From Phycisphaerales bacterium (lineage in GTDB: Bacteria; Planctomycetota; Phycisphaerae; Phycisphaerales; UBA1924), in NCBI GenBank assembly GCA_047620485.1, contig JBLHKT010000027.1, positions 1 through 58,239 on the forward strand: a stretch of 58,239 nucleotides of DNA. The letters run 5' to 3'. The notes below the pieces were generated by a model. That model made no database searches. It was not told the DNA's origin and was given only the letters and a program-made list of their open reading frames with translations. The translations under genes and the position numbers were made by a program. How positions within the stretch are numbered: the stretch's first letter is position 1; each line of letters starts with the position of its first letter. Below are positions 10,073-37,498 of this stretch, in pieces.

Positions 10073-10127
10073 CCGATTCTCCTGCGGCGTGTGGTGTGGG
10101 CGGGCTCTCGGTGAGTCGTGCTGAATT

Positions 10128-20315: not shown

Positions 20316-20380
20316 TCAAATCTTGATTGGGCGATACGCGATGAGGATTGTCAAAGACGATGTCCTTGCTCTAGGAGCAC

Positions 20381-20668
20381 GTGGACGAGAGCTACACGTC
20401 GACGTTTGCTGCCGACCGGGTCAGCCAGCAGTTCTGGGGTGCTCGGTACATCGACGACGCGGTGGCCAAGCGGCTGGACAACAACGCGGACGGCGACTAC
20501 CTCGACACCGCCGGCACGGCGGACTCGGCGTGGTACTACCTGACGGACAGCCAGTTCAGCGTCCGCCAAGTGGTGGACGAGTTCGGCGACCTGTACGAGC
20601 GGCTGGACTACACGCCCTACGGCGAGCCGCGCCACAGCTACGCCGCGGATGTGTGGAGTGCTCTCTAG
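20381..20668 (+). pseudogene. Orphan fragment (about 95 aa) of an RHS/YD-repeat core (AWYYLTDSQFSVRQVVDEFGDLYERLDYTPYGE)
   Basis: Matches the canonical RHS repeat-associated pattern YYxxDHLGS..D..G......Y.PFGE but has no upstream repeats or downstream toxin tip. It converges on and overlaps the recombinase stop by 4 nt. Confidence 0.5.
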
Positions 20669-21240
20669 GCCCTGTTCTTCATCGCCCTGATCACATCCGC
20701 GGGCATCAGGTGGTCCAGATACCTCGCCGTGGTCGCGATCGACTGGTGCCCGAGCTGCTTGGAGATAATCGCGATGTCCACGCCCTCGGCCCGAAGCTCA
20801 GCCGCGTGGGTATGCCGCAGGCCGTGGGGGTGAACCCGCTTGTCGATCCCGGCCCTCACTCCCAGCCGCTTGAGGAGCAGCCGCGCGTACCCGGGCGTGA
20901 GGGGATCACCGTATGAGGTACACAGAAGTGGGGCGATCGGGACCAGACCGAGCCCGCTGCGGGCTACCAGCCACTCAGAAATGTGCGAGGCCCCGCCGGG
21001 GTCAATGCCAACGGTGCGAGATCGTCCCCCCTTGGCGTGCAGCACGCGGACCGCGCCGGCTTCAAGGTCGAGGTCCTTCGGGGCCAGCGCCAGCGTCTCG
21101 CTGATCCGGAGCCCGGCCCGGTAGAGCAGCGCCACCAGGGCCGCGTTTCGGAGGCCCGTGGGATGCCCGGTGTCGCACGCGGCCAGTAGCCTGGCGGCTT
21201 CGCCCCGGCTGAGGACCTCGGGCGGCAGACGGCGGACCGT
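20665..21240 (-). CDS. Tyrosine recombinase catalytic domain (XerC/D/phage-integrase family) lacking a recognisable N-terminal core-binding domain; must use a non-ATG start
   Basis: Catalytic residues present: R in AGLRISE, K in LHAKGGR, HGLRHTH, and the terminal TTARYLDH Tyr. The long ORF extends to 21579 but its upstream part is Pro/Gly-rich low complexity and overlaps the 21417-21647 gene on the same strand. Confidence 0.7.
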   Translation of the reverse strand, partial: TVRRLPPEVLSRGEAARLLAACDTGHPTGLRNAALVALLYRAGLRISETLALAPKDLDLEAGAVRVLHAKGGRSRTVGIDPGGASHISEWLVARSGLGLVPIAPLLCTSYGDPLTPGYARLLLKRLGVRAGIDKRVHPHGLRHTHAAELRAEGVDIAIISKQLGHQSIATTARYLDHLMPADVIRAMKNRA

Positions 21241-21416
21241 GGGGGCCCGTGGGCCAACCGGACCGGACTCTCCCGCAGCACCCTCGGTCTGGCCTCCGGT
21301 CTCGCCGGCGGCGGGGGGCCTGTCTCGGGTCGGCGGGCCGCCCCGGGCCTCGCCGCTATGCCAGTGTCGCTTTTCGTACAAAGCGCTACTGTCATACCTC
21401 AAGGCCCGAGCATGGA

Positions 21417-21647
21417 TCAAGGCGGGTTGTCGAAATTCTCGGCCCCGTCCCGAGGCCGGCACTCCACGAACGTCACGTGGACCACGGTCTGCGCCTCGAG
21501 CCCGCACTTCGAGCACGTCGGCAGCGGGTCGTCCTCCTGCCCCGGCCACACCCACGCCACCGCGCCGAACCCCTTGCACGAGGTACAGACGCCCGGGTCG
21601 AGGCTCTTCTCGATGCGGGCTAGGCGTGCCCTGATCTTTGCACTCAC
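21417..21647 (-). CDS. Small zinc-ribbon protein (76 aa; two C-x2-C pairs, TSCKG...CSKCG)
   Basis: ORF with ATG; its start overlaps the stop of the upstream HTH gene by 4 nt. Cys spacing is typical of phage-borne zinc-ribbon proteins. Confidence 0.45.
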   Translation of the reverse strand: MSAKIRARLARIEKSLDPGVCTSCKGFGAVAWVWPGQEDDPLPTCSKCGLEAQTVVHVTFVECRPRDGAENFDNPP

Positions 21648-22081
21648 ACCAACCCCCCCGGCCCGGACTCAGCGATCAGCCGCTCCAGCTCGGCGAGCCG
21701 ACTGGCCAGGTCGTCCAGCTCGATCCCCTCGCGCGCGTTGCGGAGCAGCGTGGTCGCGGCGTTGACCCGCGCGGTGTGCGGGGCCTTGGGATTGACCATG
21801 ATCTGGGCCAGCGTCTGCACCGCGGCTGCGGCGTACTGCTGCATGAGTCCGACGGCCTGTCCGTAGGCGTCGCGGCGAGCGGCCCGGTACGCACGCGAGA
21901 AGTCGTCGCGCCTCATCCACAAGTACAGCGTGCGCTCGCTGATACCGATGGCCTGGGCGGCCTTGAGGATCGTGGGGTAACTGAGCAGCGCCACGATGGC
22001 GCGCTCGTACCGCCGCTTGAGATGTCCGGGCTCCTCTTTCTCCAGCTCGTCCCGGTCGAACATGTCCCCTTGCGAAACCAT
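21644..22081 (-). CDS. Helix-turn-helix DNA-binding protein (146 aa), phage regulator / terminase-small-subunit-like
   Basis: ...PTILKAAQAIGISERTLYLWMRRDDF... HTH. The long upstream Trp/Arg-rich extension of the ORF is taken as a frame artefact. Confidence 0.55.
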   Translation of the reverse strand: MVSQGDMFDRDELEKEEPGHLKRRYERAIVALLSYPTILKAAQAIGISERTLYLWMRRDDFSRAYRAARRDAYGQAVGLMQQYAAAAVQTLAQIMVNPKAPHTARVNAATTLLRNAREGIELDDLASRLAELERLIAESGPGGLV

Positions 22082-22194
22082 GGCTAAACCCCCTGTGTAA
22101 AAAGTCTGAGAATCTGGCCAGAACGGCCTTGATGTGTGCGCCGACATCCGCCTGCATGGTGGTTGGCCCCGAAGTGGGGCCCAAAGGAGCAGCC

Positions 22195-22707
22195 ATGTCG
22201 AAGAAGACCAGCGCGTCGAAACCCGCCAAGAAATCGCCCGCCAAGAAGCCCGTCCCCAAGCCCAAATCCTCGCCCACAGCGGCTGTGTCGCCAACGTCCG
22301 GGCCCAGCGCCAAGAAGACGGGGACCGGGGCCACCAAGGCGACCAAGCGCCCCGTGGCCAACGAGGCGCCCCCAGCGCCCGCAGCGCCCGATGCACCCGT
22401 CGCGCCACCGGTGCCGACGAAGCCCGCGAAGCGCCCCCCGGTGCCCCTCGCCAAGTCCAACCCCCGCACCCAGCCCAAGCACCTCAGCGCCATCGACGCG
22501 GCGGCGATGGTTCTTGCCGAGGCCAAGGACCCGATGACCTGCAAGGCGATGGTCGAGGTGATGGCCGAGCAGGGGCTGTGGAAGCCCGCGACGGGCAAGA
22601 CCCCCGAGGCCACGCTCTACTCCTCGATCCACCGCGAGATCGCCAAGAAGAAAACCGAGGCCAGGTTCCGAAAGACTGGGCGCGGGCTGTTCGAAGTGGC
22701 TCGCTGA
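22195..22707 (+). CDS. Lysine/alanine/proline-rich histone-H1-like DNA-binding protein with C-terminal HARE-HTH domain (170 aa)
   Basis: KKPAKKSPAKKPVPKPK... tail followed by HLSAIDAAAMVLAEAKDPMTCKAMVEVMAEQGLWKPATGKTPEATLYSSIHREI...ARFRKTGRGLFEV, which fits the HARE-HTH fold seen in RpoE-delta-like proteins. Confidence 0.6.
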   Translation: MSKKTSASKPAKKSPAKKPVPKPKSSPTAAVSPTSGPSAKKTGTGATKATKRPVANEAPPAPAAPDAPVAPPVPTKPAKRPPVPLAKSNPRTQPKHLSAIDAAAMVLAEAKDPMTCKAMVEVMAEQGLWKPATGKTPEATLYSSIHREIAKKKTEARFRKTGRGLFEVAR

Positions 22708-22733
22708 GCAAGCGGAGTTGAAATCCTGAAGTC

Positions 22734-24065
22734 TCACGCCTCGGCCCCGGCCGGGGCGTTTTCTCTCGTCGCCTTCCTCCCCGTGAACTGCTCGAACCTC
22801 TGAATTATCACATCGCAGTACAGCGGGTCGATCTCCATGAGCAGGGCCTTGCGGCCGGTCCGCTCCGCAGCGATGAGCGTCGAGCCCGAGCCGCCGAAGA
22901 GATCCAGCACCCGCTCGCCCTCACGCGACGAGTACGACATCGCCCGCTCGGCCAGCTCCACAGGTTTTTCCGTCAAATGGACCATGCTCTGCGGCGTGAC
23001 CTTCTTCACCTCCCACAGGTCCGAGACGTTGTGGGGCCCGAGGAAGACGTGGGCCTTGCCCTCGCGCCAGCCGTAGAAGCACCACTCGTGCCCGCCCATG
23101 AAATCCTTGCGGCCCAGCACCGGGTGCAGCTTGTTCCAGATGATGGCCTGCGAGAAGTAGAGCCCGGTCTGCTTGAGGACCGGCGGGTAGTTGCCGCAGT
23201 TGAGGTACCCGCCCCAGATGTAGAAGCCGCGTCCGGGCTCGAGCACCCGCGCCATGTTCCCGAACCACGCCCCGAGCAGCCGCTCAAACTCCTCATCGGA
23301 GACGAAGTCGTTGATCAGCGGCCGGTCCTTGGGGCGAAGCTTCTCGTGCGTCGCCTTGGCCTTGGACGGGTGCCGCGCGAGGTCGCTCTTCTGCTGGTGG
23401 GTCGTGGCCTTGGTCGCGCTGGCGGGGAAGCTGGATAGCCCCGCCGCGATCGCGTTGTTGGAGCGTGGCTCGACGTTGACGTTGTACGGCGGGTCGGTAT
23501 TGACCAGCTGCACGGGCTTCCCCTCGACCAGCCGGTCCACGTCCGCCTCGCTCGACGAGTCGCCGCAGAGCAGCCGGTGATCACCCAGGACCCAGAGGTC
23601 ACCGGGCTGGGTGATGGCCTCGTCCGGGGCGCTGGGGATGCTGTCGGGGTCCGTGAGCCCGTCCGTGGGATCGGGGTCGAGCAGCCGCTGCAGCTCCCGG
23701 TCGTCGAAGCCCAGCGTGGTCAGGTCGATACCGAGGTCCATCAGCCCGTGCAGCTCCAGCGGCAGCAGCTCCAGGTCCCACTCGGCCATCTCGGCCGTGC
23801 GGTTGTCGGCGATCCGGTAGGCCCGGGCCTGCTCGGGTGTGAGGTCGGCCGCGACGTGCACCGGGACCTTGGCGAGCCCCAGTTCGGCCGCCGCTTTCCA
23901 GCGCGTGTGTCCGACGACGATGACGCCGTCGCCGTCCACGACGATGGGCTGGCGGAAGCCGTACTGCCGGATGGACTCGGCCACCGAGGCCACGGCCTTG
24001 TCGTTGAGACGCGGGTTGTGCTCGTACGGCCGGATGTCGGCCAACGCCTTCATTGAGATCTTCAT
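22734..24065 (-). CDS. ParB-like nuclease-domain / N6-adenine or N4-cytosine DNA methyltransferase fusion (orphan MTase, 443 aa)
   Basis: N-terminal ParB/Srx region (...QPIVVDGDGVIVVGHTRWKAA...), motif IV DPPY (NTDPPYNV) and motif I FGGSGST near the C-terminus. No cognate restriction gene nearby. Confidence 0.8.
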   Translation of the reverse strand: MKISMKALADIRPYEHNPRLNDKAVASVAESIRQYGFRQPIVVDGDGVIVVGHTRWKAAAELGLAKVPVHVAADLTPEQARAYRIADNRTAEMAEWDLELLPLELHGLMDLGIDLTTLGFDDRELQRLLDPDPTDGLTDPDSIPSAPDEAITQPGDLWVLGDHRLLCGDSSSEADVDRLVEGKPVQLVNTDPPYNVNVEPRSNNAIAAGLSSFPASATKATTHQQKSDLARHPSKAKATHEKLRPKDRPLINDFVSDEEFERLLGAWFGNMARVLEPGRGFYIWGGYLNCGNYPPVLKQTGLYFSQAIIWNKLHPVLGRKDFMGGHEWCFYGWREGKAHVFLGPHNVSDLWEVKKVTPQSMVHLTEKPVELAERAMSYSSREGERVLDLFGGSGSTLIAAERTGRKALLMEIDPLYCDVIIQRFEQFTGRKATRENAPAGAEA

Positions 24066-24220
24066 GGTTCCCCCCCGGGAAATGGTGTTCAGAACTGGAG
24101 TGCAAATGCGACTGTTACCGTTGTTACCGTGTTACCCGCTTCCCCCCCTTCTCTCTAGAACGATTGAGGAATAGAGCGATACACGTCAAGTCGGTAACAC
24201 GGTTACATCGGTAACGCTCC

Positions 24221-26368
24221 TCAAGCATTGGTGTCCCTCCACGAGTCTCGGAGCCTGAGCCCAACACGCCCTTTGGTGGGCGGTCCGCCGATACGCTTGG
24301 TCGTGGTGCGGAACCCTCGTTTGTCCAGTTCCTTCCCCAGCCACCGGCCGCCGGACGACCGTTCGCCCTCGCCCCTGGCCCAGTTCTCGTACGCCGAGTT
24401 GACAGTCGCCCAAGGGGTGAAGAGGGAAGAGTCCTCGGGCCGCACGTCCGTCTCGAAGCACTCCTCGATGAACCTCCCGGTGATGTCCTCCTCAGATCTG
24501 TATTCGGAAGTCGCCAGCTTGACCGCCGTTGGCTCGCCGAGTCCGTCTCGCTGCCACGCCAGGCACCCCCGGACGAGCTTGGCCAGGATTCCCGGCCATT
24601 CGAGCTTGAGCTTCTCGATCAGTTGCGGGTCCCGCTCTTCCGCCGGGATGACCACATCGAACGGGATCATGCGGAGCCGCCTCCAGACCGCCTCGGACTG
24701 CTCACGGATCTGCGGGCGGTTGTTGGTCACGAGGACTGTCTTGTGCGTCCGGGCGAATGAGAAGTAGTCCTGCCGCATGTACCGGCCCTTGAGAGTCGCG
24801 TCCCCGGTGAGCCGCTTAACCATCTGGAGTTTGAGAGCCGCACCCTCTTCGGTCTCCGAGGCCACGACCAGCCGACGCCCGCGAAGGTCGGCGATCTCGG
24901 TCGGGTGTTCGCTGTGTCTGGATTCGAGCAGCAGTAACGGTGGCGCTTCACAGGCGTAGTCGCCCATGATTCCGGCGATCGTGTCGAGCAGCACGGACTT
25001 CCCATTGGCTCCTGCGCCGTGCAGGATGGGGAAGACCTGCTCACTGATGTCGCCCGTGAGGCAGTGGCCCAAGAACCGCACCACAAACTCAATGAGTTCC
25101 TCGTCGCCGCCGAGGACGCGAGCCAGGAAGTCGTCGAACAAGGAGCACCCAGCGTTCGGGTCGAAGACTACCGGGGCGAGCTTCGTGATCAGATCATCGC
25201 GGTCGTGCGGGTGAATCTTGCCGGTGCGAAGGTCGATCGTTCCATTGAGGACGTTCAGGTTCCATTGGTCGTTATCGAGGTCCTCGACACGAACGGTGCA
25301 ACCGCGCTGGGACTTGGCGATGAGGATGACCGCCTCGTGCCTCGCTCGGGACTCGCATTTTCGCGCCCACTCTCTGGTCTTTGTCCGGGAATCTTCATCG
25401 AGGCCGTCCGCGTCCTTGCCGATCTGACGGGCCAGTTCCCCGGCCAGTCGGAGCGGGGTGCCCTCGTCGTCGTCGCGCCATCGGCACCCATCCCAAGCCA
25501 ACCACTTCCCGGTGCTGTGGCAGAACCGAACCCGGTCCCCAAACGTGCTGGCGAACCGCTCGGCATTGCCGAGATCGGTCAGGGGGAACGGGGTCGGCGA
25601 CGACGGGTTGCTCGCCGGGGGGTACTTCGCGATGCTTCGTGCGATCCCCGAGACTTCCTCAGCCTCGAGCGGCGGGACGCACATCTCGATGTTGGCTTGC
25701 TGGAGCGCTACGTTGATCACGGCCTCGGACATGCCGCGCCGTCGCATCGAGCCCGCGAGGCTGGTCAGGCTGCCGTTGCGATCTCCGTCCGGGATCGAAC
25801 CTGAGCCGTCCGTGGATTGGATCACGTTCCGTGGCTTCTTCGCCTTCGCCGCGGCGACGAGCCATCCCGGGGCCACCGGCAACTCTCTCGGCGGAACGTC
25901 GAGGTCGCCGTCAAGCCACCGGTACTCGCCGTCAGAGCGGCGGCTCGGTGTCGCGACGATGTACCCGCCGTCGGCACGGACATCGACATGGTCAGCGATC
26001 AGGCTCTGGCTATTGCGAACCCCGGCTCCCTCCGGTTGGCGGAAGATGAGGTGTCGGCCGCCCCGAGGAGTTTGAGAGATCGGGGCCCCGGCGAGTTCGA
26101 ACTGCAGCTCGGGCTGATCGGACAACCACGGGTTGTCAGCTCCGTCAATGTCCACGACGAGCAGCCCCTCGGTCCAGATCCCGAGGTTGGCGTTGGGATG
26201 CCGCGTCCACCAAGACTCGATCTGCTCCGGATCGGTCGTCGCGTCCTTGAACCCGTGCGTTGTGAGAGGTTTCGACTTGCCTGGCAGCAGCGGGAACACT
26301 GGGTAGCCAAGCTCCGCGTACTTCAAAGCCGCATCGATTAAGGATTGAGATCGGTTGTGTTGGATCAT
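24221..26368 (-). CDS. Bifunctional primase-polymerase (Prim-Pol N-terminal) / D5-P4-type SF3 helicase (715 aa)
   Basis: Prim-Pol motifs (VFPLLPGKSKPL..., LLVVDIDG) and a P4/D5 C-terminal NTPase with Walker A GAGANGKS. Start taken at MIQHNRS. Confidence 0.8.
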   Translation of the reverse strand: MIQHNRSQSLIDAALKYAELGYPVFPLLPGKSKPLTTHGFKDATTDPEQIESWWTRHPNANLGIWTEGLLVVDIDGADNPWLSDQPELQFELAGAPISQTPRGGRHLIFRQPEGAGVRNSQSLIADHVDVRADGGYIVATPSRRSDGEYRWLDGDLDVPPRELPVAPGWLVAAAKAKKPRNVIQSTDGSGSIPDGDRNGSLTSLAGSMRRRGMSEAVINVALQQANIEMCVPPLEAEEVSGIARSIAKYPPASNPSSPTPFPLTDLGNAERFASTFGDRVRFCHSTGKWLAWDGCRWRDDDEGTPLRLAGELARQIGKDADGLDEDSRTKTREWARKCESRARHEAVILIAKSQRGCTVRVEDLDNDQWNLNVLNGTIDLRTGKIHPHDRDDLITKLAPVVFDPNAGCSLFDDFLARVLGGDEELIEFVVRFLGHCLTGDISEQVFPILHGAGANGKSVLLDTIAGIMGDYACEAPPLLLLESRHSEHPTEIADLRGRRLVVASETEEGAALKLQMVKRLTGDATLKGRYMRQDYFSFARTHKTVLVTNNRPQIREQSEAVWRRLRMIPFDVVIPAEERDPQLIEKLKLEWPGILAKLVRGCLAWQRDGLGEPTAVKLATSEYRSEEDITGRFIEECFETDVRPEDSSLFTPWATVNSAYENWARGEGERSSGGRWLGKELDKRGFRTTTKRIGGPPTKGRVGLRLRDSWRDTNA

Positions 26369-26420
26369 GTTTATGCCCCCCCAGGCACCCCGACGAACGC
26401 CGGGTGTTGTTCGAGTTGCT

Positions 26421-26849
26421 CTACCCCGCGCTGGTCTCACCAATGAGCCGCGCCCAAATACGTCGTTGTTCTTCCCAGTCCACGACCGCCGCGATCGGGC
26501 GGACCTCCCGCTCGGTCACGGGGTCGCGGCCCGACTCGACTCGTGGCAGGTCGAGGATCGCTTCTTGAATGTCGGGCGCGAGGTGGAGCAGGTTCATGAT
26601 TTGCGTGATCCGGGCTCGTGTGACGTGCCCGACCTCGGCCAACTCGGCCTGAGTCCTGGCGGCCCCCGATTCCAGCAGGCCTTCGAGCCGGATCGCCAGC
26701 GCCATGAGGCGGGCGAGCCGGGGCACTCTGCCCGGCGGCGGTGGGGGTGTGCGAGGCGCCTCTCCGGCTCGGAGCCTGCGGCCACGCCCGCCGCGGGCAA
26801 AGTGCACCGGCGTCGATCTTGTGCGTCTGGATGATCCGGTGACTGTCAT
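26421..26849 (-). CDS. Small HTH protein (142 aa) with Arg/Pro-rich N-terminus, ParB/KorB-like helix-turn-helix
   Basis: ...TQAELAEVGHVTRARITQIMNLLHLAPDIQEAI.... Start ATG overlaps the serine-recombinase stop (ATGA). Confidence 0.45.
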   Translation of the reverse strand: MTVTGSSRRTRSTPVHFARGGRGRRLRAGEAPRTPPPPPGRVPRLARLMALAIRLEGLLESGAARTQAELAEVGHVTRARITQIMNLLHLAPDIQEAILDLPRVESGRDPVTEREVRPIAAVVDWEEQRRIWARLIGETSAG

Positions 26850-28351
26850 GCGGCGGCCTCCTCAAGCTCGTCGGCGTGGAAGTGCACGTGTACGGACTCG
26901 GTTGCGGCGTCCCACTCGACCCCCGCGACCATCTCGCGAACGAGGTCAGCTCGCTCGGAGGGCGTGAGCGCGTCCCAGACCGGGTCGAAGGCCTCGGCGG
27001 CCCCGACCAGCTCGTCCGGGTCGATCAGTTTCTGCTCGTCGCGAGCGATGCGGCGGTCCAGTGACCTGAGCTGCGTCGTGAGCCGCTCGGCCTCGTTCGG
27101 GTCGGCGGCGGCCTCGAGCCGTGCCGCGAGTCTTGGGCGCTCAGCCTGCCGCGCGTCGGCGTTCTCGATCAGGACCTCCATGGCGTGACTGACCACGGCC
27201 CGCAGCGTCTCGTCTTCGCCCGCGACGGCCCGGATCTCGTCGATCACGATCCGCTCCAGGTCGGTCGCGGGGAGCGACGGGGCGGGGCAGGTGTCCCACC
27301 CGAGCTTCTGGGCCTTGCCGCAAACGTAGTACTGGTACCGCCGGGCCTTGCCCGAGCCGCCAGCCTTGCTGACGTAGTGGTGCCCCATGCCGCACCCGCA
27401 CGCCGTGCAGCGGACGAGCCCCTTGAGCAGCGCCCCGTGCTTGTTGCCAACCCTCGAGCCCGAGGTACGGCCGTTGAGCTTCAGCTGGGCCTGCACCCGG
27501 TCGAACAGGCCCTGATCCACGATCGCGTCGTGCTCGCCCTCAAAGATCTCTTCGTGGTGCCTGACCTTGCCGACATAGACGACGTTGGTGAGCATCGCGT
27601 AGACCGTCCCCTTGTCGAGCGCGGCCCCGCCCTGCGGCTTGTCCTTCTTGCTGGTCCACGCCTTCGTGGTCCACCCTCGCTTGCGGCACTCGCGGACCAC
27701 CGGCATGAGCGACCCGTCCTCCAGGTACAGCTCGAAGACCCGCCGCACCCGCTCGGCCTCGGATTCGTTGACGTGGAGCTTCGAGCCGCCGGGCCCCGGG
27801 ACCAGGTCGTACCCGAGCACGGGCCGACCCCCGGCCCACTTGCCCTTGCGGCGGGCCCCGGCGATCTTGTCGCGGGTCCGCTCGGAGACCAGCTCCCGTT
27901 CGAACTGGGCGAAGCTGAGCAGGACGTTCATCATGAGGCGGCCCATCGAGTCGGCCGTGTTGAACGCCTGCGTGGCCGACACGAACGCGACGCCGTGGCG
28001 ATCGAAGACCTCGATCATCTTTGTGAAGTCCACGAGGGACCGGCTCAGGCGATCGAGCTTGTAGACCACGACGGAGTCGATCTTCCCGGCCTCGATATCG
28101 GCCAGGAGCCGTTTGAGCGCGGGCCGTTCCATGTGGCCGCCGCTGATCCCGCCGTCGTCGTACTTCTCGGGCAGGCAGACCCAGCCCTTGGACTTCTGAC
28201 TTTCGATGTACGACTCGCACGAGTCACGCTGCGCGTCCAGAGAATTGAACTCCAACGCGAGCCCCTCTTCAGAACTCTTCCGCGTGTAGATCGCGCACCG
28301 GACCAGCTTGGTCTTCTCGGTTTCGCTCATCCTTGAGCTGGCCTTGCTCAT
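26846..28351 (-). CDS. Large serine recombinase (resolvase catalytic domain, recombinase domain and zinc-ribbon, about 500 aa)
   Basis: CAIYTRKSSEEG...DAQRD...VVYKLDRLSRS catalytic motifs, then a recombinase domain and CTACGCGMGHHYV...YYVCG zinc ribbon, then a C-terminal coiled coil. Confidence 0.9.
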   Translation of the reverse strand: MSKASSRMSETEKTKLVRCAIYTRKSSEEGLALEFNSLDAQRDSCESYIESQKSKGWVCLPEKYDDGGISGGHMERPALKRLLADIEAGKIDSVVVYKLDRLSRSLVDFTKMIEVFDRHGVAFVSATQAFNTADSMGRLMMNVLLSFAQFERELVSERTRDKIAGARRKGKWAGGRPVLGYDLVPGPGGSKLHVNESEAERVRRVFELYLEDGSLMPVVRECRKRGWTTKAWTSKKDKPQGGAALDKGTVYAMLTNVVYVGKVRHHEEIFEGEHDAIVDQGLFDRVQAQLKLNGRTSGSRVGNKHGALLKGLVRCTACGCGMGHHYVSKAGGSGKARRYQYYVCGKAQKLGWDTCPAPSLPATDLERIVIDEIRAVAGEDETLRAVVSHAMEVLIENADARQAERPRLAARLEAAADPNEAERLTTQLRSLDRRIARDEQKLIDPDELVGAAEAFDPVWDALTPSERADLVREMVAGVEWDAATESVHVHFHADELEEAAA

Positions 28352-28863
28352 GCCGAGCCCCCTCGCTTGGGTTTGGTGAGCCCGAAAAAGAGATAGCCGT
28401 TCCAATGGCTCCCGGTGATCGCGTGGGCGACCGCCGAGAGCGAGCGGTACGCCGTGCCCTCGTGTTCGAAGCCATTGGAAAGGACCGTCACCCGGTGCTC
28501 GATCCCCTTGAACTCCCGTGTCAGAACCGAGCCGGCGATCGGGAGGCGCTCGTCGGGGCGGCGGGCCACGGTGCCCGTCACGGTCCGCACAGCCGCCCCC
28601 AGAGCGACCCCCGAACTCTCCCAGTCGGACGGCGGGCGGACACGCAGGTCGGCGTCACGGGCCAGCTCCGCGGCCCTGACGCGGGCACGCTCGGTGAGGT
28701 CGCCCTCGACCTGTGCCTGCAGCCGCCACGCGATCCTGCGGATCATCCAGCGGCGGTTGGACGAGCGGGTGCCCTCGCCGTACACCTCGGCGTACCGGTC
28801 ACGCAGCTGGCCGACGGTCAGCTCATCGAGCGAGTCGATCTGATCTCGGGTGTGGTCCGTCAT
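28348..28863 (-). CDS. DUF2924-family protein (171 aa), the usual upstream partner of large serine recombinases
   Basis: LDELTVGQLRDRYAEVYGEGTRSSNRRWMIRRIAWRLQ... matches my recollection of DUF2924. Its stop abuts the recombinase start. Confidence 0.55.
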   Translation of the reverse strand: MTDHTRDQIDSLDELTVGQLRDRYAEVYGEGTRSSNRRWMIRRIAWRLQAQVEGDLTERARVRAAELARDADLRVRPPSDWESSGVALGAAVRTVTGTVARRPDERLPIAGSVLTREFKGIEHRVTVLSNGFEHEGTAYRSLSAVAHAITGSHWNGYLFFGLTKPKRGGSA

Positions 28864-29510
28864 CGCGTCTCCCTTCCGGCCCGCATCGCGCAGGCCTCTC
28901 GCGTCTCGCCCGGTAAACCGGACGGGACACTGAGGTCTTGCGAGTGGGGGAGTTCAAGCGATGTCGGGAGAGATTCTGAGCGTGACGGGAGCGCATCGAT
29001 AACGCGGGCCAAGCCGATGCTGAGCGCCTCGACCAATGGCCCGGGCGGTGTGCGCGATGAAAGATGTGCGGTCAGCCCACCGGGACGAAGCCCGGCCAAC
29101 TCGAAGTTTTCCCCCACCATGTCTGCCCCCCCCGAGGCTTGCAGAGCGTGATCTCGCGTCCCGTCCGGCCCCCCAGCCGAGTACTCCCGCGACGCCGGAG
29201 CACGCCCCGAATCGAGTACAATTATAGGCCACTGGTTAACGCGAAGCACTGCTTGGGCCGATCGAAATATTGTATTCGATAGCGACCTGTCGAGCGGTGC
29301 GCGGCCAGGCCCGTGGCATTGATGCCCTGCCCGTGCGGCCGAGCAGGGCCTGCCCGTCGCGGAGTGCTTTGAGTCGGTCGTTCGGGTCTGGATGGGCTTG
29401 GGTGTTGGCATCGCACCCATTGTGTGCACGTGTCAACCGGTGGATTGTCAGGGGCAATGACGAAGCGACTCTGTGAAGAGTAAACGGGCTGAGCGGAGAC
29501 TTGGTGAAGA

Positions 29511-30356
29511 CTAAGTGCCTGAATTTCTTTCGAGCGAGGCGGCCCAAGCCTCGGCAATCTGCCGAGGTTGCTCGAAGTCCCCGCGCTCGACCGCGACGAT
29601 CATGGCTTCGATCTCCGTGGCGGTGAACCGGCGATTGGCGGCGGCCCGACCAAGGGGGCTAGGCGCGACCCCGGCGGCCTCGCGGATCCGGTCGAACTTG
29701 GACGAACTGAGAGAGGCTCCCCCGGCTCCGGCGATCTCGATCAACTGGGTCTTGGTCAGTCCCCGGAAGCCGCCCGGCCATTCGTACCCGGACCTCTGGT
29801 GCGGGTGCAGAGCGGTTACCAACGCGCTGAGCGTCCGAACCGCGAGAGCCACGGCCTCCTCTGGGAAACTCGTGGTGCCGACCCGGTCCACACCGAATGG
29901 GTTGGCGGGCCGCATCAGGTGGTCCCCGGGCTCCTCGCCGGAAAACAGGAAGGGTGGGCGGGGGAAGAGCTCGATCAGCCGACCTAGCGCGGAACTAGCG
30001 GGCTGGAGATCGAGACGCAACTTCGCGGGCGGCTCGATCTGGAGAGCCACATCAAGGCGCGCGACAGCGGCCTCCCACTCGGCCCACCAGGAGATGGCCT
30101 GATCCCTGGCGGCCTGCCGAGCCGCCTCAATCGACTCCTCCGTCTCGCCCTTGCTTAGGAATTCGGTCCCGTCCGGATGGATCACTCCCCCGGCACCGTC
30201 GCCGGGGCGGGCACGCTTGGCATCGGCCCACTGGGTGGCGATGGTGGCCGCGAAGCGGGTCAGCCGGGCCACGTCGTTCGTTGCCCGGTGGAGTTCCCGC
30301 AGACGGGTATCGCCGGGCTTCGTGCAGTCGTAGTCCGATGTCGCGGTCGCCGCCAT
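29511..30356 (-). CDS. Hypothetical protein (about 280 aa) inside the integrative element
   Basis: ORF only; the start could also be at 30395. No domain recognised. Confidence 0.4.
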   Translation of the reverse strand: MAATATSDYDCTKPGDTRLRELHRATNDVARLTRFAATIATQWADAKRARPGDGAGGVIHPDGTEFLSKGETEESIEAARQAARDQAISWWAEWEAAVARLDVALQIEPPAKLRLDLQPASSALGRLIELFPRPPFLFSGEEPGDHLMRPANPFGVDRVGTTSFPEEAVALAVRTLSALVTALHPHQRSGYEWPGGFRGLTKTQLIEIAGAGGASLSSSKFDRIREAAGVAPSPLGRAAANRRFTATEIEAMIVAVERGDFEQPRQIAEAWAASLERNSGT

Positions 30357-30589
30357 GCGTGCACCTCTTCCATGAGCAGCCCGGAGGTCGGGCAATGCAC
30401 GAACAGCCTACACCCACTACCTGAGGGTAATTCCTGCGCATGTGGTAGAGCCATGCTGAGTGGAAATCAAATGTCAATGCACCACGGAACACTAAGTCCT
30501 CGACGCACGCCGCCGAGGCAGGGGCCGTGTTTGTCGGTCTCGCCGTGACGACTTCGGCAGGTTGAAGCTGGAGGGGCGGTGAGTTCGGG

Positions 30590-32014
30590 TTAACACCCCG
30601 TCAGAAACGCAGCAATGAACGACCCGATGTCGCTGTTGTCGAGGATGCCGTCGGCATTGAGATCCGCGGCGATGTCACCGGTGAGGAAGAGACCCACAAA
30701 CACACCGATGTCGCCGAAGTCGAGGATGCCGTCGTCGTTGAGGTCGGCGTGACACGGCCCGGGGCTGGCGACCGCGGCGGCGATATCGAGCATCCCCACG
30801 CCGATCACGTCCTCGAACCCCGGGTTCGCACCCGAGATATCCCGCGCGGTCTTGCGGAGGATCCAGCGGAAGTCGTCCCACCGCCGGATCGTTCCCTTCT
30901 GGATGAGCAACGCCGCGGTGCCGGCAACCAGCGGGGCCGCGAGGCTCGTGCCGTCCGCTTCTCCAAATGAGCTGGGGGGCAGCGCGGGGCCGCACAGCAT
31001 CGCGGGGATCGCCCCGGTCAGGGAGGTGCCCGGGACCGAGATGAAATAATCCACGCCATAGTTGCTGAACCCGGCCAGTGAGCCGCTCTCATCGACCGCG
31101 ACGACCCCTGCGACCTTGCGCATCGCGGCCGGGTACTCGGGGATGTCGCTCGAGTTGTTGCCGGCCGCGGCAACGAGGATGATGCCCTGAGCGGCGGCGT
31201 CGTCCACCGCGCGATCGAGGATGCGCAGATCCGCCCTTGTGCTGAGGCTCAGGTTGATGACATCGGCGTTGTTGTCGATCGCGTAATAGATCGCCTTGGC
31301 GACCCGAAATGCGGTGGTGTGCCCCTCGTCGTTGACGATCCGGATGGGCAGGATCGTCGCGTCTGGCGCGACCATCAACGCGAGTGAGGCGACCGCGGTG
31401 CCGTGCCCGACCATCTCATCGATCAACCCGTCCCCGTCGTCGTCGATCCCGTTGCACACATCGGCGAACGCGGCCGGGTCATTGATGGCGGGGTCGTTCA
31501 GGAATGAGATCGCCAACGGAGAGATGGAGCCCTCGAGATTGGGATGCGTGGGATCAACCCCGCTGTCGATCACCGCGATGGTCACCCCCGCTCCGGTCAC
31601 CGTGGCCTGGGCCGCTTCCACGCCCATGGCCTGGCGCACCGGCTGCTGCTGGAACTGCTCGGGCGGGGTCATCAGAAAGATGCTCTGCGTCCCTGAGCCC
31701 GGGTCGCCCGAGAGGTAATTCAGCTCGCTGTGATCGATATCCGCATCGGTGGCAAAGAGAATCTCGAACGCGTCCGGCGTCATCTGCAGCTCAAGTGACA
31801 CCAGGTGGATCCCACGCGACGCGATCGAGTCGCGCACCACAAACCCGTAGCGTGCGGCGACCGCCTGGATCGAGGCCCCCGGGACGAGCTCGAGGATGCC
31901 CTCGCCCGAGAGGGGCTGATCGCCTTGTGGGCCAGCCGCCGCGACCGCGGTAAGCGTGATCAGGGACGACGCGAGAATCGATAGCCGTGTTAGTACAAGC
32001 ATTCTGGTTCTCAT
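30590..32014 (-). CDS. Secreted subtilisin-like serine protease (peptidase S8, D-H-S triad) with C-terminal GC-type dockerin-like tandem repeats ending ...FLTGC
   Basis: VIDSGVD, HGTAVAS and GTSLAAPLVAG catalytic motifs, signal peptide MRTRMLVLTRLSILASSLITLTAVAAA, and a C-terminal DLNDDGILDFGDIGVFVGLFL / DLNADGILDNSDIGSFIAAFLTGC module. Its start overlaps the CHAT gene stop (TAATG). Confidence 0.85.
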   Translation of the reverse strand: MRTRMLVLTRLSILASSLITLTAVAAAGPQGDQPLSGEGILELVPGASIQAVAARYGFVVRDSIASRGIHLVSLELQMTPDAFEILFATDADIDHSELNYLSGDPGSGTQSIFLMTPPEQFQQQPVRQAMGVEAAQATVTGAGVTIAVIDSGVDPTHPNLEGSISPLAISFLNDPAINDPAAFADVCNGIDDDGDGLIDEMVGHGTAVASLALMVAPDATILPIRIVNDEGHTTAFRVAKAIYYAIDNNADVINLSLSTRADLRILDRAVDDAAAQGIILVAAAGNNSSDIPEYPAAMRKVAGVVAVDESGSLAGFSNYGVDYFISVPGTSLTGAIPAMLCGPALPPSSFGEADGTSLAAPLVAGTAALLIQKGTIRRWDDFRWILRKTARDISGANPGFEDVIGVGMLDIAAAVASPGPCHADLNDDGILDFGDIGVFVGLFLTGDIAADLNADGILDNSDIGSFIAAFLTGC

Positions 32015-34845
32015 TATGCAACTCCGATCGCGATAAAGCCAGACCAAAGTCCGGGGTGAGTGCCATTCTTGATTGCTTGACGCTGGGCCCGGTGAAGGCC
32101 CGAGAATAATCTGGCGGCGGGGGTGCCCGTTTTTGGGGCCTCGGCGTACATCCGGCTCATCAGCTCCCGGGCGGTCGCGTCGTGTGAGGCCCAGAGGCAC
32201 GAGACCAGTCCGCTGGCCCCGGCGGCGAGGAAAGCACGAACAAACCCGTACACCTCCTCGCCTGAATCGACACGGGCACGCCCGGTCTCGCAACCCGAGA
32301 GCGTGACCGCGGCCCCGTCCAGGTCGAGTGAGAAGATCTCACGGGCTGTCAGCCACCGGTCGTGCAGCTTGATCGCCGCGGCGAGTGGGTTGCCCGGCGG
32401 GAAGATCCCGTGAGCCGCCAGATGGATGAAGTCGGCCCCCGCGAGCTGGCCGAGCACACCATCGGCCGTCGCGTCCGCACCCGTCAGCAGGCAGGGGTCG
32501 GGCAGCACGTGCGCCACGGCGCGGGCCTCTGCGTCGATATGCGGGGCGAATCGGTCGGCCACACCAACGACGAGCGATCGACCCGTCGTGCGGTTCTCGG
32601 GTCGTGTGATCGCGCTGAGCAGGCTGGCGCTGGGGAGGTTGGTCACACTCATCCGCTCGATGAGGAACGCGTCGCCGTCGTGCAGTGCGCCGAACGGGAC
32701 GGTGTGCAGGTCCGCCGTCGGCACGCACGTGACACGGGCAATATCACTCAGCAGCGGGAGAACCGGGTGGAGCACGGCGTCGTGCAGCGCGAAGGCCGCA
32801 GAGATCGCGGCCGAGGTACGCTTCGCGGCCCGCGCCGAACTCCCCGAGCCTCGCACGATCGCGCGCCGGAACTGAAACGAGAGGTTTCCGGCCAAGGACT
32901 CGAGCTCGTCGAGCCCGAGCCGAAGATCCACGAAGTGGATCGCCCCCCGCCGAACGACGAAGCATCCCAGCGAATCCCCGCACCGAGCGTACGTGAGCAG
33001 GGCATGATCCGGATCCAGCGAATCGGCGAGCTCGACGCCCGGCTGCGGGGTGGCCAGGACCCCGCGCCCCGCGCGCGACGCGGAAAGCCGAGATTCCAAC
33101 CCCGTCACGCGGCTCTCAACCAGGTGGAGCTCCGAGAGCCAGTCGGTGACTTTGGGGGCTGTGTCAACTTCCGCGGCGGGGTCGATCCGGCTGTACAGAA
33201 AATTGAGCGCGGCACGCTGCTCGGCCAGCTGCATGAGCAGGCGGGACTCGTCCTCGGACCGCGCCGCCCGCGCGATTTGATCGGCCAACTCAACGTCCCC
33301 GCTGATCAGGTCGAGCAGCGCCCGTGAGCGCCCACGCTCGGTGACATCAAACGCCTCGGTTTGCGCGTCCGGCCCACCGGCCTGGAGGATCACGGCGGTA
33401 GCCTCTGAGAACACCTCGTGCCGCTCATCGATGAAGGCCGCTCGGAGCCGATCACCCTGCAGTGCCCCACGGATACGGTCGAGATGGTGCATCGCATGTC
33501 GGTACTGCTCAACCGCCTCAGCGACCGAGCCCCGGGCGCAAAGAACCCGCGCCATCCGGTGGTGCAGGTCCGCGAGCACCGAGGGCAGCGCGAGCGTGCC
33601 CGCGTCTTCGATCGCACGGGCGATGAGGTCGTGAGCCGCCTCAAGGTTTTCGTTCGCCAGCTCGATATCGCCGCGCAGCATGATCCGGAACAGCCGCAGC
33701 GTCGGGGGCTCTACCGTGCCTGCCGGTGGGTCTGCCGCAAAGGCCAGGGCCTGAGCCGTGTCGCCGGCGAGCAGGGCGAGACGACCTCTCAGGAGGCGCG
33801 CGGTGGTCTGGCCCGCGGCGTTGCCGAGGGTGTCATAGAGCTGTTGCGCCCCTGTGAGCGCGTCGCCGGCTCGGGCGGGGTCCCGCTTGAGCAGCACCGA
33901 GGCCAGCCCGGTGAGCGCTCTGGCGCGTTCGGCGGTGAGCCCAACCTCTTGGAGCGCCGAGTCTGACCGGGCGTAGAGCTCCGCCGCATCGTCAAGCAGG
34001 CCGATCGCGGCGAGCACGTCGGCGAGCTCGGCCTCAAGACGTGCCAGGTCACCCGGTGCACGGTCCTGCTCGAAGAACCGCCGTGCCAGCTCGAACTGCT
34101 CGATGGCCTCGGAGAACCGCCCCTGGCGCCCGAGCAGGTCTGCCAGGTTTCCACGCACGATCGCCGCAACGCGCGGCATCCCCGCCTCGTCAAGCAGCTC
34201 GCAAGATTCTCGAAAAGCAGACTCGGCCTGTCTGAACCGACCCAGCTCCAGCAACGACTCGGCCCGGTTGGACTGGATCTGTGCCGTAGTCGTCGGGTCG
34301 CCCTTCGCCAGCCGCAGCGCCTGATCGAACCGATCGATCGACTCGGACCATTGCCCCAGCATCCGGTGCAGGATCGCGTGGTTCGTCACCGCACGCACCG
34401 CGAGCTCGGGCTGTTCAGACTCACGGAAGACCCTCTCGGCGTGCTCGCAGCACCCGATCGCGTCGGCGAAACGCCCGAGGCGTGCATAGGACTGGATCTT
34501 GGTCAGCGAGACGTGCGCACGCTCGATCTCATCCTCACGCGCCGCGGCGATCTGGTCCGCTTCGTCGAGGGCGTGGATCGCGTCCGTAAAGCGGTTGGCG
34601 TAGTTGAGCGCGTGCGCCAGGGCGGTCCGTGCCCGCGCGCTGGCGATCGAGGCCTCGAGGCGGTCCGCGATCAGGCAAAGGATCTCGGCCTGCTCGAGCG
34701 CTCGCGTCAGATCACTCATCACCAGGTCACGCACCTCATCGATCAGCTCGAGCAGCACGCTTTCTGGGAACGACAGGCGCGCGACCTCACGGGCGCGGTC
34801 CGCGTCCGGCATCGAGGCAATCCGTTCGAGTTGCGATCTGTACAC
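32014..34845 (-). CDS. TPR-repeat protein with C-terminal CHAT (caspase-like) protease domain (943 aa)
   Basis: Multiple TPR-like helical repeats, then a CHAT domain with the His/Cys dyad (FIHLAAHG ... VTLSGCETG). Confidence 0.8.
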   Translation of the reverse strand: MYRSQLERIASMPDADRAREVARLSFPESVLLELIDEVRDLVMSDLTRALEQAEILCLIADRLEASIASARARTALAHALNYANRFTDAIHALDEADQIAAAREDEIERAHVSLTKIQSYARLGRFADAIGCCEHAERVFRESEQPELAVRAVTNHAILHRMLGQWSESIDRFDQALRLAKGDPTTTAQIQSNRAESLLELGRFRQAESAFRESCELLDEAGMPRVAAIVRGNLADLLGRQGRFSEAIEQFELARRFFEQDRAPGDLARLEAELADVLAAIGLLDDAAELYARSDSALQEVGLTAERARALTGLASVLLKRDPARAGDALTGAQQLYDTLGNAAGQTTARLLRGRLALLAGDTAQALAFAADPPAGTVEPPTLRLFRIMLRGDIELANENLEAAHDLIARAIEDAGTLALPSVLADLHHRMARVLCARGSVAEAVEQYRHAMHHLDRIRGALQGDRLRAAFIDERHEVFSEATAVILQAGGPDAQTEAFDVTERGRSRALLDLISGDVELADQIARAARSEDESRLLMQLAEQRAALNFLYSRIDPAAEVDTAPKVTDWLSELHLVESRVTGLESRLSASRAGRGVLATPQPGVELADSLDPDHALLTYARCGDSLGCFVVRRGAIHFVDLRLGLDELESLAGNLSFQFRRAIVRGSGSSARAAKRTSAAISAAFALHDAVLHPVLPLLSDIARVTCVPTADLHTVPFGALHDGDAFLIERMSVTNLPSASLLSAITRPENRTTGRSLVVGVADRFAPHIDAEARAVAHVLPDPCLLTGADATADGVLGQLAGADFIHLAAHGIFPPGNPLAAAIKLHDRWLTAREIFSLDLDGAAVTLSGCETGRARVDSGEEVYGFVRAFLAAGASGLVSCLWASHDATARELMSRMYAEAPKTGTPAARLFSGLHRAQRQAIKNGTHPGLWSGFIAIGVA

Positions 34846-34859
34846 GAACCCTCCCGTGC

Positions 34860-35483
34860 TCAGGGGACCAGGACCGGGCCCGCTTCGATCAGCAGGTCGC
34901 CACGCCGCAGCTCAAAGAGGAAGGAGCCAGCGGTGAGCTCGGCGGCAAACGCCCCCATCTCGGATTGGATTTCTGCGATAGGGAGGTCGCTGGCACGGTC
35001 CACCACGGTGATCTGCCAAGCCCCCTCAACGTCGGCGTCGATCTGCCCGGTCACCCGCCACTGCCCATCAGAGACCGGGGCAAGCTCCAGATCGATGTCC
35101 GCCTCGTCGGTGCTGAAGGCGAGCTGGGCCGTCGCCCCAGCGCCTCGGATACCGGCGACCGCGGGCGTGAGCCGGGTGTCCAGATCCAGCGAAGCGATCA
35201 CCCGGACCAGCCCCTCGGCCAACCGCTCGATCGCACCCGGGCGACTCTCGGCCAGGGCCCGCTTGGCCCGCTTGATCGCCTCCGTTGCGGGCACCGTGCG
35301 CGGCTCGGCGAGGAGGAATCGCACCGCGAACTCGATCTTCTCGAACGCCAACCCCAGAGCGGGGTCGGCGTTGATCCGGGCCCTGAGCGCCGCGGCTTGG
35401 GGTCCGTCGAGCTCACCCGTCGCCAGGGACGTGAGCAGCTCAAGTTCAGACGGTTCCGGGTTGTTGGGGGTGTCTGTGTTCAT
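34860..35483 (-). CDS. Putative soluble anti-sigma factor (about 207 aa)
   Basis: N-terminus LELLTSLATGELDGPQAAALRARINADPAL resembles the anti-sigma N-terminal domain. It sits between the ECF sigma and the CHAT gene. No TM helix seen. Confidence 0.45.
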   Translation of the reverse strand: MNTDTPNNPEPSELELLTSLATGELDGPQAAALRARINADPALGLAFEKIEFAVRFLLAEPRTVPATEAIKRAKRALAESRPGAIERLAEGLVRVIASLDLDTRLTPAVAGIRGAGATAQLAFSTDEADIDLELAPVSDGQWRVTGQIDADVEGAWQITVVDRASDLPIAEIQSEMGAFAAELTAGSFLFELRRGDLLIEAGPVLVP

Positions 35484-35545
35484 GGGTTGTTCCACGGTTT
35501 ATGAGAGAGCCGGCTCGGCTGAGATACATCAAGGACACAGAATTT

Positions 35546-36121: not shown

Positions 36122-36379
36122 CGTTAACCGTGGTGTGTGTCCAGTGTCCCTGAGAGGATAGGGATCTCGCGGGTGCCGCTGTTGAATTCGCGCCGCGGAA
36201 GAATCTTTGAGAAGCGTGTATCTGCCCCGCCGACGCGGCCTCCTCTGTGGTGTCGTACCCGAGCCCGGGGGGCCTGGCCCGGTGCGACTCGAAACCCAGA
36301 CCTTGGTGTGACCTGGCACCAACGTCTCAATCTGATGACCCAGGCCGATGCGGGGAAGAACGGAATTGGAGCACAAGTC

Positions 36380-37435: not shown

Positions 37436-37498
37436 AGGACTCGAACCTGCGACCTAGCGGTTAACAGCCGCTCGCTCTACCAATTGAGCTACCGGGGA
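37426..37498 (-). tRNA. tRNA-Asn (anticodon GTT), 73 nt, CCA not encoded
   Basis: Manually folded. Acceptor stem TCCCCGG/TCGGGGA with a terminal G-U pair, D arm GCTC-AATTGGTA-GAGC, anticodon arm AGCGG-CTGTTAA-CCGCT, T arm GCAGG-TTCGAGT-CCTGC, discriminator G. Confidence 0.9.

Follow-up and report, generated by a model that had tools for sequence, protein, structure and literature searches.

A compact phage-derived integrative element, probably a phage satellite, in a Phycisphaerales bacterium

What is a cluster of phage-like genes with two types of site-specific recombinase and its own replication module, set into the chromosome of a planctomycete, and is it a relic or a working mobile element? 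The question is raised by contig JBLHKT010000027.1 (assembly GCA_047620485.1, Phycisphaerales bacterium), which was analyzed over its full 58,239 nucleotides (the window). The original prediction placed a mobile-element insertion carrying these two modules between ~20.34 and 30.59 kb, and judged it degraded and probably immobilised. The insertion and its modules are borne out, and all of the genes then listed are present (Pfam matches and frame analysis), although a Zn-ribbon reading frame, a small open reading frame (ORF) at 28860-29120 and an AT-richer patch at 24040-24279 had been missed. Decay and immobility find no support: the genes are full length and under purifying selection, and their architecture is retained in diverged copies with unrelated flanks.

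The segment from ~20.64 to 29.2/29.3 kb is read here, with moderate confidence, as an intact member of a conserved family of phage-derived integrative elements, compact in size (8.5-10 kb), and most likely a phage satellite of the kind of the phage-inducible chromosomal islands (PICIs). This model is ranked first because an integrase, a replicon and a homologue of the small terminase subunit (TerS), in an element devoid of large terminase subunit (TerL) and virion genes, match PICI logic. Such an element most likely spreads by hijacking a helper phage, and would be excised, replicated and packaged on the way. Its features are as follows (positions are those of the window; HTH, helix-turn-helix; LSR, large serine recombinase; SF3, superfamily 3; GC3, GC content at third codon positions; att, attachment).

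20665..21237, minus strand: short tyrosine recombinase, catalytic domain only, ~190 residues (Pfam Phage_integrase, 3e-33); terminal gene of the element
21362..21391, minus strand: palindromic site CAGTAGCGCTTT-GTACGA-AAAGCGACACTG in the leader of the tyrosine recombinase gene; unique in the window, with 0 expected
21417..21647, minus strand: Zn-ribbon protein with two CxxC pairs; start overlaps the stop of the TerS-like gene; GC3 0.98
21644..22081, minus strand: TerS-like HTH protein, 145 residues (PHROG small terminase subunit families)
22195..22707, plus strand (opposite to its neighbours): H1-like protein with a Lys/Ala/Pro-rich N-terminus (HARE-HTH by way of its homologues)
22734..24065, minus strand: ParB_N-fused N6/N4 DNA methyltransferase (Pfam; PADLOC MTase_II)
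24066..24220, no strand: candidate replication origin; iterons directly 3' of the helicase gene
24221..26443, minus strand: Prim-Pol/PriCT_1/D5_N/SF3-helicase (DUF5906) replication protein (Pfam); the annotated start at 26368 gives 715 residues
26421..26849, minus strand: ParB-HTH-like protein, 142 residues (phrog_14161, 5e-19)
26846..28351, minus strand: LSR, 501 residues as annotated (Pfam Resolvase, Recombinase and Zn_ribbon_recom)
28348..28863, minus strand: DUF2924 (RAMA-like DNA-binding) partner of the LSR (Pfam DUF2924, 9e-42; phrog_11806)
28860..29120, minus strand: small conserved ORF, ~86 residues, first gene of the recombinase operon (recognized by motif conservation)
29155..29300, no strand: probable LSR-side end and att junction zone (AT-richer patch, GC 0.575; homology break)

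For comparison, ~170 related loci (L numbers) were gathered by scanning IMG/VR with recombinase and ParB-methylase and metagenomes with the HTH protein, and the gene order of these relatives was mapped by tblastn with the proteins of the window. Relatives of the replication protein (PrimPol) were reached by way of the methylase and TerS-like genes; PrimPol as a single query found no matches in IMG/VR. Ratios of nonsynonymous to synonymous substitution (dN/dS) are by the Nei-Gojobori method. The base composition of the DNA is ~65% GC, and coding frames are readily told by GC3.

A conserved compact unit and its ends

The gene order of the family is small ORF, DUF2924, LSR, ParB-HTH-like, PrimPol/SF3 helicase, ParB-methylase, H1/HARE-HTH, TerS-like HTH, Zn-ribbon and short tyrosine recombinase. 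In this full reduced form, which ends in the TerS-like, Zn-ribbon and short recombinase genes and has no structural genes, it recurs in the diverged metagenomic loci L041/L176, L110, L120, L134, L155 and L160/L156, and in part in ~20 short contigs. The short tyrosine recombinase gene lies within 900 nt, on the same strand, in 19 of the 45 non-redundant loci that have a TerS homologue and 1 kb or more of sequence downstream of it. The conserved unit measures 8.5-10.1 kb across the family. The window copy differs from the other full copies solely in lacking a sigma-like gene and small ORFs.

The ends of the unit are placed at ~20.64-20.67 and ~29.15-29.3 kb because homology between relatives breaks there. 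Between L110 and L120 (86-88% nucleotide identity), collinearity begins ~315 nt upstream of the DUF2924 start codon and ends at the final codons of the tyrosine recombinase gene; outside this stretch, both flanks are unrelated. Collinearity has the same extent, from ~315 nt upstream of DUF2924 to the end of the recombinase gene, in L155, L160 and L156 (86-97% nucleotide identity), whose downstream flanks are unrelated (that comparison covers the downstream side). Homology between the prophages L008 and L009 likewise ends ~315 nt upstream of the DUF2924 start codon, and conservation between these and the window begins near 29155. At the other end, similarity to the nearest relatives, L186 (78-85% nucleotide identity) and L095, stops at the stop codon of the tyrosine recombinase; the place taken in the window by the remnant of an RHS gene is occupied in L186 by a convergent dockerin-type gene. 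The element would accordingly be about 8.5 kb long, judged from these breaks. The left boundary given earlier, ~20.34 kb, thus holds within ~0.3 kb, but the right one is more likely at ~29.15-29.3 than at 30.59 kb. The same genes occurring in differing contexts are the signature of mobility.

The recombinase operon is preceded by a promoter-like TCGACA-16-AATATT (29293-29266), which faces it. Its LSR is identical to database protein P0001, annotated 'site-specific DNA recombinase'; Pfam scores are above the gathering cut-offs (Resolvase 138, Recombinase 50 and Zn_ribbon_recom 49 bits), and the YTRKS and DRLSRS motifs, the former with the catalytic serine, align to TP901-1 integrase. The pair of LSR and DUF2924 genes is intact, as had been predicted. 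In 14-17 related loci DUF2924 is found upstream of the LSR, and in all related loci the ParB-HTH-like gene comes after the LSR. A motif of the small first ORF (LARxI...LELS...LSVxxG) is kept upstream of DUF2924 in L008, L009, L005, L002, L039 and L085, and in L008 and L009 the ORF is annotated as a gene for 77-80 residues. The literature searched mentions DUF2924 only beside recombinases of Wolbachia WO phages and as RAMA-like, a relationship stated in PMC11342252.

The search for att sites gave chance-level results: the best local score for direct or inverted repeats between the two ends is 27, against 26.7 ± 2.9 in shuffles. The original prediction, too, had seen no flanking repeats, and to that extent it was right, but immobility does not follow. 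Large serine recombinases recombine att sites sharing only a 2-bp crossover core, and the lack of flanking repeats is therefore what is expected of such an integrase. Circular or permuted copies that might reveal attP were looked for among the relatives, of which only the recombinase-less L178 has terminal repeats; no junction of tyrosine recombinase to DUF2924 was found in the 30 IMG/VR contigs with homologues of the former. The LSR at one end would integrate and excise the element at att sites with a very short core, as its genes and motifs suggest.

An attachment site in the tRNA-Asn gene, which would make an island of 20.3-37.4 kb, was considered and rejected: the 3' end of the tRNA is unrepeated, and the S8, CHAT and ECF genes in between are absent from all relatives. 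The marks of a tRNA-targeting island are not seen, in that the tRNA lies ~8 kb away and its sequence is unrepeated in the window.

A decayed and immobilised remnant of a prophage or integrative element, surviving as fixed chromosomal DNA, would account for the missing structural genes and flanking repeats, for the RHS pseudogene fragment abutting one end and for a window copy that is shorter than the other full copies and without the sigma-like gene. That is nevertheless highly improbable. All genes are full length and their catalytic motifs are kept (LSR, tyrosine recombinase, PrimPol and methylase). The genes of the window are under purifying selection: dN/dS is 0.13-0.5 for four of them even against the nearest relative, L186, and 0.05-0.37 for eight genes compared between L110 and L120. 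Six or more diverged copies, whose flanks are unrelated, show the same reduced architecture, which random decay would not give; the iteron origin is kept; and absent repeats are uninformative where the integrase is a serine recombinase.

Replication and putative packaging modules

PrimPol retains a DIDG (DxD) and a GAGANGKS (Walker A) motif, and its C-terminal half matches the C-terminal domain of P4-family primases (NCBIfam TIGR01613, 276.6 bits against a cut-off of 108.7). Directly downstream of its gene, three GTTACC iterons (24188-24215) and three inverted copies of them (24114-24141) face each other over an AT-richer spacer. This lies in the lowest-GC patch of the element (24040-24279, 0.51-0.55). 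The two AT-richer patches singled out originally, at ~21.35 and 29.2-29.5 kb, are real (GC is 0.63 at 21340-21459, against 0.70-0.81 alongside, and 0.55-0.58 at 29200-29319 and 29380-29559), but they are modest, and neither is the lowest. Every relative has iterons at this site behind the helicase gene, but with a word of its own: the word is TGACAC in L110/L120, TGACAG in L155 and GGTGACGCAC in L160/L041/L134. PrimPol is the most divergent gene between otherwise similar elements (52% amino acid identity between L110 and L120); lineage-specific iterons together with a most-divergent replication protein are what would be expected if initiator and origin are matched. The Prim-Pol/SF3 protein would fire this adjacent origin and so amplify the excised circle.

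The ParB-fused methylase, which retains DPPY and FGGSG motifs and may modify the DNA of the element, has ~70%-identical counterparts in 600 or more stretches of IMG/VR contigs. In 79 of 82 viral loci the H1-like gene adjoins it, and in the window a terminator-like hairpin (22736-22759) comes after the H1-like gene; homologues of the H1-like product in L005 and L186 match Pfam HARE-HTH, whereas the window protein itself has no family match.

The assignment of the 145-residue HTH protein as TerS-like is based on matches to phrog_2538 (2.7e-7), phrog_7344 and phrog_3218, and on the viral contig L177, in which a 52%-identical homologue directly precedes a gene for the large terminase (phrog_38, 3.5e-74), with a portal gene farther downstream. 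Terminase genes also precede the short tyrosine recombinase in other contexts (L181, L182). The Zn-ribbon gene has positional homologues in L041, L186 and ~20 other loci, with dN/dS of 0.15-0.5. Structural genes were looked for throughout 20.6-29.3 kb: no ORF has such a match in Pfam, and none of the ORFs scanned against PHROGs and NCBIfam does (the 86-residue ORF was not scanned alone). TerL, portal, capsid, tail and lysis genes are thus absent, and the element is not a complete prophage. Large terminase, portal and further such genes are present in related full-size IMG/VR contigs and in L177, and the backbone that runs from the small ORF through DUF2924, LSR and ParB-HTH to PrimPol-like, ParB-methylase and H1/HARE-HTH genes is common to many full-size temperate phages. 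A TerS homologue in an element without virion genes would steer the large terminase and capsids of a helper phage to the DNA of the element.

The same replication module could instead serve a self-sufficient, plasmid-like integrative replicon or a domesticated module, independent of any helper, in which the HTH protein would be a regulator. The element's own origin and primase-helicase fit this reading, as do the modest E-values of the TerS matches, the generic nature of the Pfam matches of that protein (HTH_23 and HTH_Tnp_1_2 only) and the possibility that L178 is a free circle without a recombinase. Searches of Pfam and NCBIfam, on the other hand, found no partition, relaxase or conjugation genes; the HTH homologue stands in the position of TerS, before TerL, in a true phage; and the remaining backbone genes are those common to tailed temperate phages. 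An independent replicon is accordingly considered improbable.

L178 itself (IMGVR_UViG_3300009873_002319; 7,849 bp) has a 144-bp terminal direct repeat, a PrimPol of 41% and a TerS-like protein of 40% identity, but lacks a recombinase; possibly, this contig is a relative of the replicon and packaging core that exists as a free circle.

The short tyrosine recombinase, its palindrome and its cargo

The recombinase at the far end of the element had been described as catalytic-domain-only, and that description is upheld. It aligns to XerC-like and XerD proteins from residue ~102 onward (~102-278), with the R, K, HxxR, H and Y residues present. Its start is uncertain (JGI annotates a 245-residue version). 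The existence of more than 2000 homologues of 185-260 residues, many of them annotated in Phycisphaerales, indicates a natural short family and not a truncation; the orthologue in L041 has 195 residues and its own ATG and ribosome-binding site, and dN/dS against L186 is 0.13. A frameshifted full-length integrase was considered and discarded: GC3 is low in the in-frame stretch upstream, which does not resemble an N-terminal domain, and the orthologues are themselves truly short proteins. Among NCBIfam models, the fullest profile coverage is with the ~200-residue invertases of the FimB/FimE type: the protein covers positions 15-172 of the 198 of profile PRK09871, with 71 bits against a cut-off of 222. 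An integron integrase was likewise excluded: that model is matched over part of its profile, with 82 bits against a cut-off of 265, and the whole N-terminal half is missing from the protein. In place of attC sites, some relatives carry partial copies of the recombinase's own 3' end.

The palindrome at 21362-21391 abuts a promoter-like TTGATC-N18-TATGAC (21393-21420), and is a candidate core site of the recombinase or an operator. Relatives retain TTGATC-N17/18-TAxxxx and, at the equivalent place upstream of the recombinase gene, a palindrome of the form [arm]CGCTTT-N6/7-AAAGCG[arm']. The outer arms covary across lineages: 86.8% of cells are paired, against 72% when shuffled, 21 cells have changed on both sides, and none of 500 shuffles gets as far; when the pairing register is shifted, pairing falls to 33-53%. 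The palindromes were selected by searching for them, which inflates this statistic; their fixed position is independent evidence. A possible second copy or half-site was sought, and the match found (29462-29473) is at chance level and has no counterpart in L110/L120; no convincing pair of flanking inverted repeats that might bound an invertible segment was found near the gene. An 11-bp perfect inverted repeat, CCGCGGATGTG, around the recombinase stop (20643-20653/20692-20702) was set aside as being in the chance range and not conserved in L186 and L095. In L186 (1480-1780), a unit of ~68 nt comprising promoter and palindrome is tandemly duplicated.

The DNA just 3' of the recombinase stop is hypervariable, even between elements that are 97% identical. 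What follows the short recombinase gene in various relatives is:

L041, L116, L150 and L152: RHS proteins
L091: BREX
L093: type ISP / PLD
L094: methylases, UvrD and Vsr
L181: CRISPR-Cas I-E
L185: SNF2, DUF4391, methylase and endonuclease

Four times independently, the short recombinase gene is followed by a one-gene cassette and then by a partial copy of its own 3' end (L091/L092, 10001-12121; L041, 9420-11745; L093, 10001-12388; L131, 976-3678); the copy in L091 is 340 nt long and 95% identical, its last ~60 nt being identical. Site-specific capture of cargo, homologous exchange between related elements, or the att junction of the element itself would each account for this pattern, which does not decide among them.

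As a separate observation, the TerS-like gene and the short recombinase are ~10 kb apart in L146/L148 (10001-20346), and the DNA between them includes genes for an RtcB-like ligase and for a member of phrog_850 (PHROG 'RNA-binding protein'). The upstream side of the recombinase is thus open to cargo as well.

Two roles can be envisaged for the recombinase: a Cre/loxP-like resolution of multimers at the palindrome, or the exchange of cargo in the hypervariable 3' DNA. A more far-reaching version of the latter, put forward tentatively and with more doubt than confidence, is that recombinase and palindrome constitute an undescribed platform of the Phycisphaerae onto which BREX, type ISP restriction-modification, CRISPR-Cas I-E and RHS toxin genes are loaded 3' of the recombinase gene, and which occurs in two settings, as a hotspot fixed on chromosomes and as the end module of an LSR-integrating, PrimPol-replicating satellite that would move cargo between cells. 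Loading of this kind could sometimes leave behind partial copies of the recombinase 3' end; resolution of multimers at the palindrome is an equally possible role.

The locus can also be parsed as two neighbours, that is, an LSR/PrimPol element (~21.4-29.2 kb) lying beside a resident or independent 'hotspot' recombinase gene, with the attB of the LSR in the promoter region of the latter. Short recombinase genes without an LSR module, next to conserved host-like genes, are indeed found in L091-L094 and L185; the similarity of the window to such stand-alone loci begins at the Zn-ribbon stop and the promoter -35 (GCCTTGATCC); and on this reading the two att regions would coincide with the AT-richer patches at 21.35 and 29.2 kb. 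Against this, homology between related elements is unbroken and identity undiminished from the TerS-like gene through the Zn-ribbon ORF to the end of the recombinase gene, the identity of the recombinase tracks that of its neighbours (87% between the window and L186, against 78-81%), and the sequence upstream of DUF2924 is unlike that upstream of stand-alone recombinase genes (by inspection, not alignment). An arrangement of two neighbours is therefore considered unlikely, and the recombinase is retained as the terminal gene of a satellite.

Several points nevertheless weigh against a satellite with these ends. The occurrence of the short recombinase on chromosomes without the LSR module means that its membership in the element is supported by collinearity only. 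The excised circle, the attP junction and the empty attB are all unseen, and the ends are located to zones rather than to exact att positions. TerS is assigned from modest PHROG E-values (1e-5 to 1e-7) and from synteny in one phage. No helper phage has been identified, the genome being represented by this one contig. Some of the short contigs of the family may be redundant samples of the same populations, and the window copy is a shortened variant, since the sigma-like gene and small ORFs that the other full copies have between the ParB-HTH-like and PrimPol genes are missing from it.

Flanking DNA, known satellites and implications

The surroundings of the element are:

left chromosomal flank: glnA, amtB, two response regulators and a Reg_prop/Y_Y_Y histidine kinase ending at 20315
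20381..20668, plus strand: orphan RHS-family core fragment, 95 residues; converges on the tyrosine recombinase gene, the stop codons overlapping
29511..30356/30395, minus strand: protein of 281-294 residues, no family assigned
right flank: subtilase, TPR-CHAT protein, extracytoplasmic function (ECF) sigma factor, then tRNA-Asn at 37426-37498, ~8 kb from the element

Neither of the two reading frames that adjoin the element appears to be part of it. The one at 20381-20668 (GC3 0.92) is 35% identical (pairwise E = 3e-11) to residues 2218-2286 of the 2676-residue RHS-repeat protein that sits directly after the short recombinase in L152. It has no Pfam or NCBIfam match, no RHS repeats, no N-terminus and no toxin, comprising ~70 core-proximal residues only, and is a remnant of flank or cargo, a fragment rather than a gene, outside the conserved element. 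The protein of 281 residues is probably also outside, because tblastn finds no homologue in related loci and it has no Pfam, NCBIfam or PADLOC match.

A close relative of the host, or an empty site, was sought in scans of genome and metagenome contigs and not found; the best homologue of the flanking histidine kinase is 28% identical. A 5-kb piece identical to the window is present in the Logan assembly of SRR28416798. The tRNA-Asn gene is the only tRNA gene and the sole Rfam match in the window. Separated from it by ~1 kb of non-coding DNA, a minus-strand cluster (30590-36421) encodes a subtilase with dockerin-like C-terminal repeats, a 943-residue TPR-CHAT protein, a 212-residue protein of no known kind and the ECF sigma factor; it is unlinked to the element in every relative, and PADLOC gives it a weak generic subtilase match only. 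Farther to the left (7117-9780, minus strand) lies the gene of an 887-residue protein with TCAD9, APH-kinase and NUDIX domains, which has no PADLOC match, beside SpoIIE phosphatases and a STAS protein (a partner-switching module); these neighbours span 2831-11405.

How does the element compare with known satellites and phages? The likeness to PICIs, including the Staphylococcus aureus pathogenicity islands (SaPIs), is the closest in kind: those too are small integrated elements with an integrase, a primase-helicase with an iteron origin and a TerS homologue, with no capsid, tail or lysis genes and with variable accessory cargo at one end. An integrase, a replication module with its adjacent origin, a packaging-redirection gene, a size of ~10 kb and the absence of capsid, tail and lysis genes are all found here. 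In contrast to PICIs, the integrase is a large serine and not a tyrosine recombinase, with DUF2924 and ParB-HTH-like partners; the primase is of the archaeo-eukaryotic Prim-Pol type; a ParB-methylase, an H1/HARE-HTH protein and a terminal short tyrosine recombinase are added; no Stl- or AlpA-type regulator is recognised; the host phylum is Planctomycetota; and dependence on a helper is presumptive.

The PLE of Vibrio cholerae is an LSR-integrating satellite that replicates from its own origin. The element resembles it in both respects, although the sequence comparison extends to the LSR family only; PLE has an initiator of the RepA_N type, is ~18 kb long and has no other genes in common with the element. 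With P4-like satellites the element shares a size of ~10 kb and the TIGR01613 C-terminal half of the primase/helicase, but it is not one of them: there is no Psu, Delta or Sid (no Pfam match on any ORF) and no tyrosine integrase next to a tRNA gene. The P4 primase is of the alpha type, unlike the N-terminal Prim-Pol of the element.

A wider resemblance is to lambda-like phages (IMG/VR L015, L023 and L026; prophages L008 and L009), which share the module of small ORF, DUF2924, LSR and ParB-HTH (up to 66% identity) and, in the same order, PrimPol-like, ParB-methylase (~70%) and H1/HARE-HTH genes. They carry AAA_24, DUF669, RusA and DEAD-helicase genes that the element lacks, and are without its TerS-like/Zn-ribbon/short recombinase end; the IMG/VR contigs have a gpA-type TerL, a lambda-type portal and capsid genes, whereas the compared parts of L008 and L009 stop short of the structural module. 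The LSR of the window has its closest counterparts in the prophage-like regions L008 and L009 (63-66% identity), whereas identity to the LSRs of other compact elements is lower (47-50%; L110/L155). The end from TerS to tyrosine recombinase, in contrast, is closest to the compact elements L186 and L095; the element is modular and mosaic.

The short recombinase can be compared with the FimB/FimE invertases, which are likewise ~200-residue recombinases without an N-terminal core-binding domain, although it scores far below the cut-offs of that family. A single inverted-repeat site next to the recombinase gene, with arms of 11-14 bp and a spacer of 6-7 bp, is reminiscent of loxP and dif; in contrast to FimB/FimE, Cre/loxP and Xer/dif, neither a flanking inverted-repeat pair nor a second copy of the site was found.

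No description of this element family was found in the literature; it is apparently widespread in Phycisphaerae-type bacteria and undescribed. One lesson for annotation is that 'no direct repeats' does not mean 'immobile' where the integrase is a serine recombinase. The short tyrosine recombinase, which lies beside defence or toxin genes in most of the downstream contexts examined, could mark defence islands and possibly a new way of capturing cargo. As a compact set of parts, the family also offers a PrimPol replicon whose iterons are matched to it and a serine integrase whose DUF2924 and ParB-HTH partners are unstudied. Catalogues of phage satellites draw, to our knowledge, almost exclusively on Proteobacteria and Firmicutes; through a conserved, satellite-like family of Planctomycetota and marine metagenomes, satellite biology would reach an understudied phylum.

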